Below, piece by piece: positions 1-58,339 of a DNA stretch of 64,000 nt; the stretch's first letter is position 1; every line of letters begins with the position of its first letter. The stretch comes from Raja brachyura. Its lineage: Eukaryota. The notes below the pieces were generated by a model. It was not told the DNA's origin, searched no databases, and worked only from the letters and a program-made list of their open reading frames with translations. Where the stretch lies: NCBI GenBank assembly GCA_963514005.1, contig OY740804.1:5890001-5954000 (forward strand), given 5' to 3'. The position numbers and the translations under genes are program-made.

Positions 1-468
1 TGGTATTGAGCATTATAATTTTTTATTGATTTCATTAATTGGCCTCATCTGTTTCCATATTTATTGTCCCACCTGCTTTCCACTGTTAGAATTGATCCTT
101 TTTTATTATTCCTGTCTATCCATATGGATTTTATTATAATCTTCCTTGCAGCTGCATTTTCTTTCTTTCAGGGTATTACACAGTTCTTTGTATCCTTCCA
201 CATCCCCAGTTTCTCTCTCCCGTGACTCCCAGTCTGAATAAGGTTCTCGACCCGAAACGTCACCCACGCTGCCTTTCCCGCTCTGTTTCTCCAGCATTTT
301 GTGTCTATCCACTCTGTATTCACTGTATTCACTGCTCCATCTCATGACTTATTTCTCTGTCTTCTCCGAATCCATTTAACCGTGTAATCTCTCATTCCCA
401 GTCTTGTAGCCATGCTCCAGCAATGAGGTCAGTAATTGGTGATCATGAGTTGTCCCCCCACCCCCTAG

Positions 469-558
469 TCCAACACACGTTCTCTCTCCAAACTGATCTC
501 CATTGACGCTGCTGCTTCGCCCAGACACACTTCATCAAGATTATGAAGCAAATAACAA
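469..558 (+). pseudogene. Putative 90-nt stalk exon of upstream Ig-receptor paralog (copy A), in-frame TGA at 494-496
   Basis: ccccctag|T CCA...AAC AA|gtaaat. Homologous to 10048-10137. Phase-2 frame reads PTHVLSPN*SPLTLLLRPDTLHQDYEANN and joins the TM exon in frame. Confidence 0.45.
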
Positions 559-626
559 GTAAATGTTTCAAAGATAAACCGTCTCGTTTCCTCCCATTGA
601 TTCTGTATCTCTTGCCCTTTGCCCAG

Positions 627-717
627 TTACATCTCATGGAAAGTGGGGCGCTGGCTGTTCTTTTTCCTGCTTGTGATCTGGAGTATCTCAAACGTGGTGA
701 TCACAAGAGGCTCTAAG
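627..717 (+). CDS. Transmembrane exon of CD300/pIgR-like receptor, copy A (YISWKVGRWLFFFLLVIWSISNVVITRGSK)
   Basis: gcccag acceptor and gtaggt donor. Hydrophobic stretch with N-terminal K/R. Homologous to 10206-10296. Confidence 0.7.
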
Positions 718-1334
718 GTAGGTTTTATTGTCATCATGTTCGTAAATTATATGAGCAGAATTGGGGCATTGAGCCCATCATATCTAATCCGCCCCCAATC
801 ACGGCTGATCTACCCTTCACTCTCGAATCAATTTTCCTGCCTTCTCGCCATAACGCTTGACATCCTTATTTCTCAAGAATATGAAAATCTCCGCCTTAAA
901 AATATCAATTGATTTGGACATGCAAAATTGCTGAAGTAGCTCGGCGGGACAGGCAGCATCTCCGGTGTGAATTGACTTGGCCTCCACAGGCTCTTGTGGT
1001 AATGAAATCCATAGATTCACCACCCTCTAACCAAAACAATCACTTCTCATCACCTAATGTATCCAAACGATTTCCATTAATGCTTTCGAATATCCTGTCC
1101 ATTGATAGAAACAAAAACCATGCACGTTTTCATATCCTGAAATTAAACCAAACCTCTATGTAGATGATATCACAAGGTGTTTTCAGGTTGTACGTGTGCA
1201 GGGTGGATTTCTGTGCCCGGTGTGGATTCATTGGGGTCCATATTCCAGACAGCAGTGTATTGGGAGTGGCCGTGTCAAATAAAGCGTGCTTCTCACTGTC
1301 AATGAATCTGATGACTTCACATTGTCTTTTGCAG

Positions 1335-54035: not shown

Positions 54036-54193
54036 GATGATGCACGCCAATTGTTTATTCTAGCAGGGACCACAGAGGAAGGAAACATGACAGCAGAACT
54101 TGCCGGAGTTATCAAGCGGTTGTGGCAAGATAGTGGTGTTCAAGCTTGTTTTGGTAGATCTAGAGAATATCAGCTGAATGACTCTGCATCGTA
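54036..54193 (+). CDS. gnai3: gnai3 exon 4 (158 nt)
   Basis: DDARQLF...[10 protein letters not shown]; cgtag / gtaagt. Confidence 0.97.
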
Positions 54194-55528
54194 GTAAGTA
54201 TGGTCATCATTACTATAAATCAAAGTTCTTGTATCTAGTACATTAATAAATTGGCATTTAGTTCATCTACCTGATACAGATTAAATGAAAATTGAAAGCT
54301 TCGAGAAATCTTGGAGAGTTTGGCTGTAGGAATAGAATTAGGCCATTCAGCCCATCAAGTATACTCCGCCATTCAATCGGACTGATCTATCTCTCCCTCC
54401 TAACCCCATTCTCCTGCCTTCTCCCCATAACCTTTGACACCTGTACTAATCAAGAATCTATCTAAGTCTTTAAAAATATCCACTGACATGGCCTCCACAG
54501 CCTCCTGTGGCAAATAATTCCACAGATTCATCACATAAAGACATTTCTCCTTGCCTCCTGAAAAGAATGTCCTTTAATTCTGAGGCTATGACCTTTAGTC
54601 CTAGACTGTCTCACTAGTGGAAACATCCTCTCCACATTCACTCTATCCAAGCCTTTCTTGGTGAAAGTCAAATCTTGATGACATTTACTGCAAAAGATTC
54701 ACAACACATAACATAAGCTATCTCTGGTCAGTTGGAAATTGCAAAACTATTTGTTACTGTTTTTATTTGGAATGCAAATATTGCTTGGATTAGATTTTAA
54801 CCAAGGTCCCTCTGCTTGTGCAGCTGTCTAGAATAACCAGTGTTTATTCTCGTATACCATCCCCTTTACACTGTTCAAAGGAAAACATGACCCTGATATC
54901 TTAGATAATATTCTTCCATGGATGGTCAAAACAAAAACAAATTTTCTTCATTTGGTATTATTATTATAACTATAAAGTACTTTTGGTGTCATGTGCCACT
55001 GTTGCAATGCATTAAACACAAGTTTTTTTAAAACTCATTGACCACCTCACCAGAGACAGGAATGGTACTTAGATGCACAAACAAATTACTTTCCCAATTG
55101 CTAAGTATAGTTATATTTGGCTAATCAGAGTGAAAACCCTAAATGCACGAGTAACCTGATGTTTTGTTTTGAATATATTATTGGAGATGTACTTATTTTG
55201 CAATCAATCAGTCTTGATATTTTATACTTGCAATCTGTCTGAAGAAGGGTCTCAACCTGAAACATCACCCATTCCTTCTCTCCATAGATGCTGCCTGTCC
55301 CGTTGAGTTCCTCAGCATTTTGTGTCTATCTTCTACTTATTTTGCAAAGGAACTGTTGGTTACTTTCACTTCATTTATAGCTGGAAAATAGTGTTTGTTC
55401 TATTTCAGTTATTGTCCAAAACAACATCTGGCATTCTCTGCACCGAGGCTGCCTGACCCAGTGACTTCCTCTAGTATTCTTGTTTTGCTTTGTATATTTT
55501 CTTCATTGACTATAGATTTCTTTTTCAG

Positions 55529-55657
55529 TTATTTGAACGATTTGGATAGAATATCCTTGCAAAACTATGTCCCCACTCAGCAAGATGTTCTAAGAACCAG
55601 AGTAAAAACTACAGGTATCGTAGAGACGCACTTTACCTTCAAGGAGCTGTATTTTAA
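55529..55657 (+). CDS. gnai3: gnai3 exon 5 (129 nt; switch I RVKTTG)
   Basis: tttcag / gtgagt. Confidence 0.97.
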
Positions 55658-58339
55658 GTGAGTAATATTGTTCTTTAATCACATTGAAGTGCATGTTATT
55701 AATGTACTAACTATAAAATGTGGTATTTCAGTCATAAAACTGTGTCAATCTTGTTTTTTTACTTTAATCACCTGTGTAAATATAAAATTACTGAATCTTG
55801 CTATAATAGTATTCTTCACAATGAGGATAATTTTCTTTAAACACCTTGATCAGACGGTGATATGCAGTGATAAGTATATTTGGGTAGTAGTCTAAAATAG
55901 CATATAGTGAATTATCTCCTTACAATCAGGGAAGGAGAAAAGTAGAATGAACGACAAAGAGAATTTGAGGTTGTGCTGAAGAGGCAAAGGGTTTTTTTAA
56001 CGTAGGGGCTCCAGGAGGGGGATGCATTATAACGAAAGATGACTTTGGGATTTTGTCATTGAAAATTGACCATTGCCAGATTAAGAGTGTGAAATGCATA
56101 ACCATTCTTTACCACGAGATAGAAAACTAATAGTGCACCCAATCTTTGTAAGAATTGTCTAGTGTTAGTTTAGGTGTCTCTTGGTGTGTGTTGGGGGGGG
56201 GATGGACTTACCATCAGGAGTCTGGGATCCCTTGCCGGGGATCGCCAGAGAAGAGCTGTAACATCCTGAAGCCGGGGTCTCCGGTAGGAAAGTGCCGATT
56301 CCGGACCTCCAACCCGCGGAGTGTGTATGACCATCCCGACGTCGGAGTTTCGATCATCCCGACGAGAGGGCCTTACATTGGGCCGTCCGTAGCGGCGAGT
56401 ACGGAGGGTGTATGGCCCCGACCACGAGTGAACAAAGAAGGAGGACTGGCTGAACTTTATTGCCTTTCACCACAGTGAAGAATGCTGTGGTGGATGTTTG
56501 TGTTACATCTTATTGTGTGTTCTTTTTAAGTTTATTGCTGCTGGCAAATTCATTTCACTACACCTTCGGGTATATGTGACGAATAAAATTGACTTTGAAG
56601 AATTGATGAATGAAAGAAGACCATGCCTCATCTACTTTGGCTTTTATAGTTAATAATGCAATGGTAATTGAGTCAGCAGAGGATCCAGAATTACTCAAAT
56701 CCCTAGAGGAGGAATGGTAGGATACCCCCAAATGTATTGCAATAACACAAGTATTTCAAGTTGATTCAAGTTTATTCGTCACATACACATACAATACCAT
56801 ACCGTTTATTGTCATTTGAACCTCATTGAGGTTCAAACAAAATTTAGTTTCTGCAGTCATACGAGATGTGCAGTGAAATGAAGATGCACAAGATTAACAG
56901 TGACTTGATCATATGGATTCAGAATTTGCTTACTTATCGTAGACAGAAGGTTGTGGTGGAAGGACAATATCCAGGCTGGATATGCAGGGAATGAAGGATA
57001 GGAATTATGTACATGCATATAAAAATTTACCTAGGCATAATGTTGGCACAGATGTTGCGGGCCAAAGTGCATGTTCTTTTGACCTATACTATTCTATGTT
57101 CATTGAAAAATGGTAGACGATCTATCTCTGGAAAAATTTAATTTGAGTCAAGGTACCTTTGAAAACCTAAAAATTGTTGTCCCTAGGATAATGTACTGGA
57201 AATCTGTAGGAATCACTTAAACCTTCCTTTCTGAACATGTCACCTTGGGTATAGGAATGTCATTGAAAGTCTGCACAATATAAAATTACCAATTGTACAT
57301 TTTATTGCCAAGAATGGCATAAATTCAATTTTACGAGATTATTGACTTCAGTGACTTGCTCTTTTGTTAAAGTGTTGTCAAAGTTAATTACAAATATAAA
57401 ATGGTAACAAAACAGGCAGTATCCATTCGACCTATTAAGAATGTGAAGGTTCTCTACAAGAACATAGCAGTCTGAAGAAGGGTCTCGACCCGAAATGTCG
57501 CCCATCTCCTTCGCTCCTTAGATGTTGCTGCACCCGCTGAGTTTCTCCAGCTTTTTGTGTAGCAGTTATTATAATTCCCCAGACATGCATTTAAAAAAAC
57601 CTAGCATTTATTTCTGCACCCCATCCCCCTCCAACTCCCCCAAGTATTAATCAAGTCAATACTGGCTCGATCAAAGAAATCTAGCTGGTCTTATCCCTCT
57701 AATCCACTCCCCATTATCATGCAATTTCTTTCCTTTCTTGTAGTTGTCTACTTTCCTGTGAGTGCTACAATAAATCTGCTTCTTTCTACCAGTGGCAGTG
57801 TATTCTGAAGCCAACAAGACTGATGATGAGCCTCGACCGACAACTTCACCCATTCATTCTATCCAGAGATGCTGCCAGTCCTGCTGAGTTACTCCAGCAT
57901 TTTGTGTCTATCTTCTGAGGAAAAGTTTAGTTATTTTCCTACTTGCCTTCATTCCATATCACCTGTTTCTTAAACCCTCCACCAATCAAACATTTTTTCC
58001 TCTATTTACTATCTATAACTTTCATAACTTTACACATCTCAGATCAAATATTGTAGTTCCAAGATCAACTGCAGCTTCCACAGTTTGTCCATTAATTAAA
58101 CTCCTTCATTAAGGAATAATCTTATTACATTTCTTTTGCATGCCCTAAAGCCTTTTACATCATCCCTGAAGTGCAGTGCTGGGATAGGATACACTACTTA
58201 AATTGTGGCTGAGTTCGTTTTTTTAATAAATTTTCATGATGACATTCATTTATACTGCCTCTCTTTAAAGGCAAGAAGTATCCTTGCTTTTTAAAACACT
58301 TATTTCAATTAACCTTGCCACTTTCAGTGCACGTATCAG

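Follow-up and report, generated by a model that had tools for sequence, protein, structure and literature searches.

Short hammerhead-bearing repeats in the Raja brachyura genome are probably leader stubs of a Penelope-like element

Minimal hammerhead ribozymes (min-HHRs) in the pseudo-long terminal repeats (pLTRs) of Penelope-like elements (PLEs) were described in 2014, mostly as scattered single motifs (PMC4209133). Insertions of endonuclease-bearing (EN+) PLEs were reported to have an inverted pLTR and a one-sided tail of 30–40 bp (PMC8557442, PMC3846280), and the origin of these two features was described as unresolved (PMC8557442). The PLE protein of the green anole nicks and extends both target strands, starts at two internal sites matching the tail, and is predicted to be a dimer; hammerhead cleavage was not required in vitro (PMC11167929). 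In this study, we analyzed a window of 64,000 nt from Raja brachyura (GCA_963514005.1, contig OY740804.1, positions 5,890,001–5,954,000 of the forward strand), throughout which short hammerhead-bearing repeats occur. The repeats are real and very abundant minimal-hammerhead pLTR stubs of a Neptune/Nematis-type PLE, a known kind of feature. We consider it probable (about 0.6) that the stubs come from an autonomous PLE encoding reverse transcriptase (RT) and a GIY-YIG endonuclease, in which they form the start of the 5′ leader and equally the 3′ end of the pLTR, and that they are likely dead-end run-off cDNAs that do not spread by themselves.

The exact 28-mer of the hammerhead core was found at positions 2669, 4352 and 11973 on the plus strand and at 14024–14051 on the minus strand. 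A preliminary description of this DNA had also listed the cores at 6635, 35407 and 34381–34408 (minus strand) as intact; the first two carry one mismatch each and the third carries two, with helix II kept in all three. When up to six substitutions were allowed, 23 sites were detected in the window (13 on the plus and 10 on the minus strand), against none in each of 20 first-order Markov resamplings. A profile built from seven real copies detected 43 element fragments, 32 of which extend into the core region, covering 4,180 bp (6.5%) of the window, and detected none in the reversed window. Both counts are far above the chance controls and bear out the window-wide presence of the motif that had been claimed. 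The very high copy number also held in a genome-wide count, which gave 50,608 exact cores in 2.70 Gb, against 4,000–9,000 motifs reported for coelacanth and Xenopus (PMC4209133). A 33-mer downstream of the predicted cut had 67,600 exact genomic matches. A 124 kb sample contained 81 fragments and six exact cores, which extrapolates roughly to 0.7 million fragments genome-wide.

The ends of the copies were surveyed in the first 100 of the 67,600 matches, all within the first 3.1 Mb of contig C1. The 33-mer was chosen downstream of the cut, so intact cores were not selected; for one locus, L007, the tandem neighbor supplied the score. With C3 of the hammerhead taken as 0 and the predicted cut at +28, 28 copies were long (at least 71 nt upstream), 48 began at −8 to 0 (28 of them at −3/−4), 22 began at +2 to +22, one began at the cut, one began at +37, and none began at −9 to −70. 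The 3′ ends lay at about +94 (87–101) in 55 copies, at about +127 (121–128) in 41, and elsewhere in four. The two sites are ~33 nt apart, and copies ending at them are called tail-less and tailed, respectively. In the anole PLE, this two-site tail signature marks two internal RT start sites (PMC11167929).

The 5′ ends peak at the A of YCAGTCT, which stands three bases ahead of C3 and ~31 nt upstream of the predicted cut. Genome-wide, 6,473 exact copies begin at −3 and are preceded by a base that is not the parent's. The heptamer fits the initiator consensus YYANWYY, and it was retained in three lineages with unlike upstream untranslated regions (UTRs). We infer, on weak direct support, a transcription start at the −3 A. 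By eye, the antisense strand has a candidate A/B-box-like sequence, and positions +18 to +32 have candidate DPE/MTE-like ones. Starts at the cut were also sought genome-wide, among 3,790 matches with no C in the three bases preceding it; counted by hand, the first 100 comprised 95 decayed GTC triplets and at most five copies that begin at the cut. That such starts are rare is informative about the template, not about catalysis.

The window contains one long copy (11007–12065, plus strand). Its first part (11007–11687) is a 5′-truncated 3′ fragment of a Penelope open reading frame (ORF), recognized by Pfam and amino acid homology, with a CX4CxxC linker and a GIY-YIG endonuclease. The Pfam GIY-YIG match had an E value of 8e-4, under the curated cut-off, and the protein shared 91–95% amino acid identity with 149 other genomic copies. 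The 3′ UTR or upstream part of the pLTR follows (11688–11969), matching the long copies L046–L075 and the parent locus L122, and then AGT, an exact core (11973–12000) and the leader up to a tail-less end (11970–12065). An inverted short arm, tailed and with a small internal deletion, is its partner (10877–10993, minus strand).

Searching with the protein of this long copy gave 129,313 first-look genomic candidates; 150 were scored, and seven with long open frames were fetched. Complete ORFs were present in two of the seven, L121 (1,192 aa) and L122 (1,191 aa), with matches to RVT_1 (E 2–3e-4) and GIY-YIG (E 2e-3), each under the Pfam cut-offs. Both loci have the single ORF with RT and C-terminal GIY-YIG that characterizes EN+ PLEs, and among 954 homologs of the parent ORF many had both domains. 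In the L122 ORF, a long proline-rich insert occupies residues ~160–470, giving ~1,190 aa against 700–950 aa in most homologs. The order in L121 is stub sequence (leader), tail, ~35 nt, ATG, the 1,192-aa ORF, 3′ UTR, and the core again. Since the stub sequence stands both before the ATG and after the 3′ UTR, it serves as 5′ leader and also terminates the 3′ pLTR; judged from sequence, the repeats correspond to the initial ~97 or ~130 bases of the leader of the parent. The earlier proposal of mobilization by a Penelope protein was supported. A C-x4-C-x2-C linker precedes the GIY motif in the parent translation. A CX2-5CxxC linker between RT and endonuclease marks Neptune and Nematis and is absent in Penelope and Poseidon (PMC8557442). 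By its linker rather than by a tree, the parent is classified as Neptune or Nematis type; Poseidon, the first clade guess, was dropped because this linker fits Neptune/Nematis.

The insertions resemble published EN+ PLE insertions in the single RT and GIY-YIG ORF, the 5′ truncation, the inverted 5′ arm, the tail and the target site duplication (TSD), and the truncation points of the long copies are scattered as in ordinary 5′ truncation. Unlike the insertions described in those reports, most copies here are stubs of 95–130 bp with a fixed start (PMC8557442, PMC3846280). Poseidon_Ac of the green anole belongs to another clade; it is alike in the two internal RT start sites defining the tail, the hammerhead near the 5′ end and the unprocessed RNA as main template, whereas its ATG lies inside helix II and its start sites lie in the ORF, and here the ATG lies ~35 nt beyond the tail (PMC11167929).

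The genome contains 896 loci in which two cores meet at a perfect CAG-W-CTG palindrome. Among the first 50, 41 combined a tailed with a tail-less arm, one had two tailed arms, none had two tail-less arms, and eight were unclassified. After removal of three duplicated loci, the tailed/tail-less combination was found in 38 of 47, that is, in 38 of the 39 classified (p 7e-11 versus 0.5). The same combination was found in 12 of 13 head-to-head neighbors among the 100 surveyed copies (long arms occur in five; two overlap the palindrome set), in four of five head-to-head pairs of the lineage with a UUCG loop in helix II, and in six of eight pairs in the window. The TSDs were individual to each of the 38 pairs, with a median of 16 bp versus 4–10 bp in mismatched flanks. 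Variants common to both arms made up 36 of 96 non-CpG calls versus 1.6% when permuted (38 of 47 pairs passing the identity filter). Pairs thus almost always consist of one tailed and one tail-less arm, and they likely record the mode of insertion. The one-sided tail was already published; here the asymmetry was counted and is near-exclusive, versus 'optionally' or 'often' in those accounts, and the TSD of ~16 bp compares with 8–10 bp in Adineta PLEs (PMC8557442, PMC3846280). In the part of the PLE literature covered, no count of tail pairing and no run-off at the start site was described.

Several further insertions were recorded. In L028/L029, two long copies, one tailed and one tail-less, lie tail-to-tail ~20 bp apart. 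L080, L097 and L107 have added AAC-like reiterations at the priming junctions, reminiscent of telomerase-like slippage. The tail-less start site of young copies, UAACCCU, resembles the vertebrate telomerase template; older lineages lack it. A head-to-head Penelope hairpin in which one helix II pair is broken has been captured by another element (L228:1035–1735 and 14 related loci among L202–L230), which is ~700 bp long, has terminal inverted repeats, resembles a non-autonomous DNA transposon and has spread the hairpin to probably a few hundred sites.

The core satisfies the description of a minimal type-I hammerhead: CUGANGA, GAAA, an NUH triplet, an extra nucleotide after A9, a G10.1-C11.1 pair and a palindromic 15.2–16.2. 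Everything noted earlier about the core was found in the sequence: its boxes, an additional A separating A9 from G10.1, and ACGU with no loop. Min-HHRs of metazoan PLE pLTRs share the core boxes, the extra nucleotide 9/10.1, G10.1-C11.1, the palindromic 15.2–16.2 without loop 3, and the mostly single dispersed motifs with some opposite-strand pairs, so the assignment to Penelope pLTRs and the dimer-only geometry agree with them (PMC4209133). Neither the extra nucleotide nor the palindrome in helix III is an oddity, both having been described as hallmarks of min-HHRs (PMC4209133). The earlier reading of stem II needs correction: a two-nucleotide loop is unable to close, so the stem is better read as 4 bp with a CUCG or UUCG tetraloop. 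Helix II has 7–8 bp in Schistosoma, and the 2 bp of helix I are as in D. virilis (PMC4209133). Helix I has only these two possible pairs, helix II was calculated at −4.8 kcal/mol and the ACGU duplex at −1.7. The predicted lowest-energy fold buries the core, and the hammerhead-model search suggested in the preliminary description, done as an Rfam scan, gave no hammerhead match at E ≤ 1.

The core region showed 0/31 differences between the two largest clusters versus 16/66 downstream (p 0.002), in loci that were partly core-selected, which biases this comparison. The lineage differences keep pairing one-sidedly: CUCG occurs with U-A, UUCG with U-G, C17 changes to U, and helix I has U-A or U-G. 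Stem covariation among subfamilies, which had been named as a check, was not borne out: no two-sided change stood out, lineages differing only by one-sided U-A to U-G changes, and the covariation score on 12 copies was reached by 161 of 500 shuffles. Compensatory changes were reported for min-HHRs, unlike here (PMC4209133). Double changes at pair 10.2–11.2 were considered as covariation and rejected. In a hand count of the first 100 of 673, there were 54 A-A, 21 A-T, 9 T-T, 5 A-G, 4 C-T, 3 C-A, 3 T-A and 1 T-G, so that 25 restore pairing. These are uninformative, because 15 of 30 fetched loci sit in another amplified element and because two transitions give A-T.

It is somewhat probable that the parent has a working ribozyme, and the hammerhead is likely a weak one that depends on a dimer or on protein. 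Low activity of this kind is in line with what is published on min-HHRs and PLEs (PMC4209133, PMC11167929). Conservation of the core could equally reflect a promoter. In L004:1549–1616 and the L121 leader, an 8-bp leader-tail helix was predicted with the tail-less start site in a bulge, a candidate protein-binding origin; the z score was −2.1 for leader plus ORF start and −0.2 for stub plus flank.

We propose that the parent RNA starts at the A of YCAGTCT, an initiator-like site, with the hammerhead as its first 31 nt. The protein would nick both target strands ~16 bp apart, and from each nicked 3′ end cDNA synthesis would be primed at an internal position of the RNA, the two ends using different start sites, probably on one RNA. 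Both cDNAs would run off the RNA 5′ end and join by microhomology, most neatly at the CAG-W-CTG palindrome; loss of one arm would leave a solo stub. The ~28% long copies may derive from templates with an ORF upstream of the start site, by tandem read-through, a template jump or a ligated circle. The stubs would mostly be copied from uncut RNA. In twin priming of L1, two target strands likewise prime on one RNA and produce an inversion; here the sites are fixed ~33 nt apart, and the cDNAs cover the same stretch and give a palindrome (PMC4859970). We hold a stronger version only tentatively: the two RT start sites would form an obligate pair, one for each subunit of the dimer, serving the two strands of the ~16-bp staggered cut on one RNA, and the hammerhead would at once make up the initial 31 nt of the capped RNA and perhaps act as core promoter. 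If this were true, a single step would explain why the pLTR is inverted, why the joint is palindromic and why only one side has a tail; uncut RNA would yield stubs only, and the ribozyme may act as the switch to circular templates, from which long copies arise.

Several observations weigh against this account. For the anole protein, the start sites used in vitro did not differ between the strands, which neither shows nor excludes pairing, and one-event pairing of the two sites is not reported in the parts of that study considered here (PMC11167929). Two of the eight window pairs, both old, are tailed on both arms, and a partner arm is lacking within 250 bp of 41 of the 72 short copies. The sharing of variants between arms is inflated by pairs of older subfamilies. 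The gap at −9 to −70 is not significant alone, as the upstream density predicts about one end. Assembled contigs of other organisms, mostly guessed to be RNA, show the same 5′ boundary as loose ends that reveal no start, strand or cleavage. One or two 'short' copies in the lineage whose variant at first looked short-only may be misclassified. An untemplated G would indicate a capped RNA (PMC4859970), and the base before the start is G in 48 of 100 copies (p 4e-6). As strong evidence for the start, this was rejected: an inverted arm able to supply the G is present at 18 of 40 examined G loci, only three of the 40 have a target duplication plus one extra G, and the A/T control loci have an extra base in 0/20 and a directly abutting duplication in 3/20. 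The raw excess largely dissolved under these controls, and the cap-G sign for a capped start is weak.

The main rival explanation of the pairs is fold-back with endonuclease trimming, which we regard as unlikely. Ordinary 5′-truncated copies of the 3′ pLTR would stall or anneal at the CAG-T-CTG palindrome, and the mirror arm would arise by self-priming and be trimmed by the endonuclease, leaving a one-sided tail. Palindromes at inverted joints had prompted the proposal of self-priming (PMC3846280), endonuclease resolution was proposed for the one-sided tail (PMC8557442), and the variants shared between arms and the palindromic joints predicted by fold-back are both observed. However, the solo stubs L235, L238 and L245 lack a mirror arm, and their −3 start directly adjoins the target duplication, and the ends are one-sided about the peak (24 at +2 to +37 versus none at −9 to −70). 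Tail-less solo copies are the commonest short class (28/72), so the tail-less site primes by itself. The long arm may be either arm of the pair, which also speaks against fold-back.

The stubs could also be an independent SINE-like non-autonomous family that keeps an internal promoter, is transcribed and is recopied by the Penelope protein; we judge this improbable, more so than fold-back. About 70% of the copies are short with a fixed start, tailed stubs retain the predicted leader-tail hairpin, and the stubs retain the initiator-like site; the Penelope promoter of D. virilis is internal (PMC2377424). Against this, the anole template requires ORF sequence beyond the start sites (PMC11167929), which the stubs lack, and variants at two positions are found in both short and long classes. 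Each palindrome has a TSD of its own and must therefore have formed separately. ORF-linked copies make up about the same 30% in the young and UUCG lineages. The latter has 4,088 exact genomic matches, and among 30 of its loci seven have an upstream ORF and two more have parent UTR. As both lineages have ORF-linked relatives, the stubs are probably no separate SINE; in neither was a lineage amplifying apart from the autonomous element found. A short-only variant (13/56 versus 0/23, p 0.016) was considered as a sign of a SINE lineage and rejected, since long ORF-linked copies carry it. No tRNA (ARAGORN) and no Rfam hit was found as a Pol III head, although decayed heads would escape both searches. 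There may still be some re-mobilization of tailed stubs.

A third possibility, which we consider very improbable, is that the stubs derive from spliced RNA, with a splice acceptor at their 5′ boundary (pyrimidine tract, CTGAC, CAG|T). The upstream sequence is acceptor-like, and exon ends are often AG. The D. virilis intron ends at helix I (PMC4209133). Sampled stubs, however, have no common upstream exon and the target duplications abut AGT directly; more weakly, no GT..AG joint ends there among the joints listed in four contig sets of other organisms. Last, a non-LTR retrozyme spreading through hammerhead-cut circular monomers would share the short non-coding unit, the type-I hammerhead and the PLE relationship, retrozymes being reported as PLE derivatives, but can practically be dismissed, as retrozymes are tandem units of 150–450 bp, each with a canonical hammerhead (PMC7229834; 10.64898/2026.07.22.740005), whereas the stubs here are dispersed or head-to-head with a minimal one, their ends are not permuted around the cut, no tandem array of the unit exists in the window, and the 100-copy set has only one same-strand neighbor pair, with an ORF start between its members. 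The separate SINE-like or retrozyme-like family of the preliminary description is thus not upheld: the copies are dispersed rather than tandem, they start ~31 nt upstream of the cut, and the checked lineages include long ORF-linked copies with the same end sequence. A retrozyme is thus rejected for the short copies, and a SINE is improbable.

As a hammerhead find, this one is ordinary. Its value is that of a very large natural record of PLE insertion, including paired priming and the likely RNA start, and the near-exclusive tail pairing and the fixed 5′ start provide sharp predictions, two in number, that the existing in vitro system could address. In annotating the region, several percent of it is best entered as PLE stubs rather than as a SINE or working ribozymes.

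The young solo stubs of the window are tailed at 4349–4477 (+; exact core 4352) and 12284–12413 (−; core 12382–12409), and tail-less at 6631–6731 (+; core 6635, CCCG loop) and 57468–57563 (+; core 57472). Older copies are tail-less at 230–318 (+; core 234, two mismatches) and, as a solo stub, at 55235–55338 (+; core 55239); another lacks the 3′ part (2663–2727, +; exact core 2669–2696). A tail-less copy of the UUCG lineage lies at 35516–35609 (−). The head-to-head pair at 13961–14111 joins a tail-less minus arm, with the exact core 14024–14051, to a tailed plus arm without its first 70 nt. Tailed minus and tail-less plus arms form the pairs at 33158–33374 (old, joint a CAG-W-CT(G) palindrome), 35293–35504 (core 35407, U-G closing pair), 36478–36666 (old, both arms shortened at the joint) and 37111–37294. 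At 34285–34756, two old tailed copies lie head-to-head ~220 bp apart (cores 34381–34408, minus, and 34637, plus), perhaps from two events, and the old tailed/tailed pair at 34802–35085 breaks the pairing rule. The profile search found 19 further element fragments.

Seventeen of the 43 fragments are concentrated at 32.4–37.3 kb, around a GC-rich island, perhaps through insertion into open chromatin. The island contains, at 36088–36210 (+), what we take from its sequence to be the first coding exon of a G-protein alpha gene of the i/o type. Decayed LINE-type RT/endonuclease frames and a transposase-type helix-turn-helix frame, all ordinary repeats, lie at 25603–28305 (−), 45857–48778 (+), 15259–16568 (−), 23414–24046 (+) and 63218–64000 (−). 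A minisatellite at 30600–31005 has a 28-bp unit in ~13 copies, with an 82-bp higher-order period.

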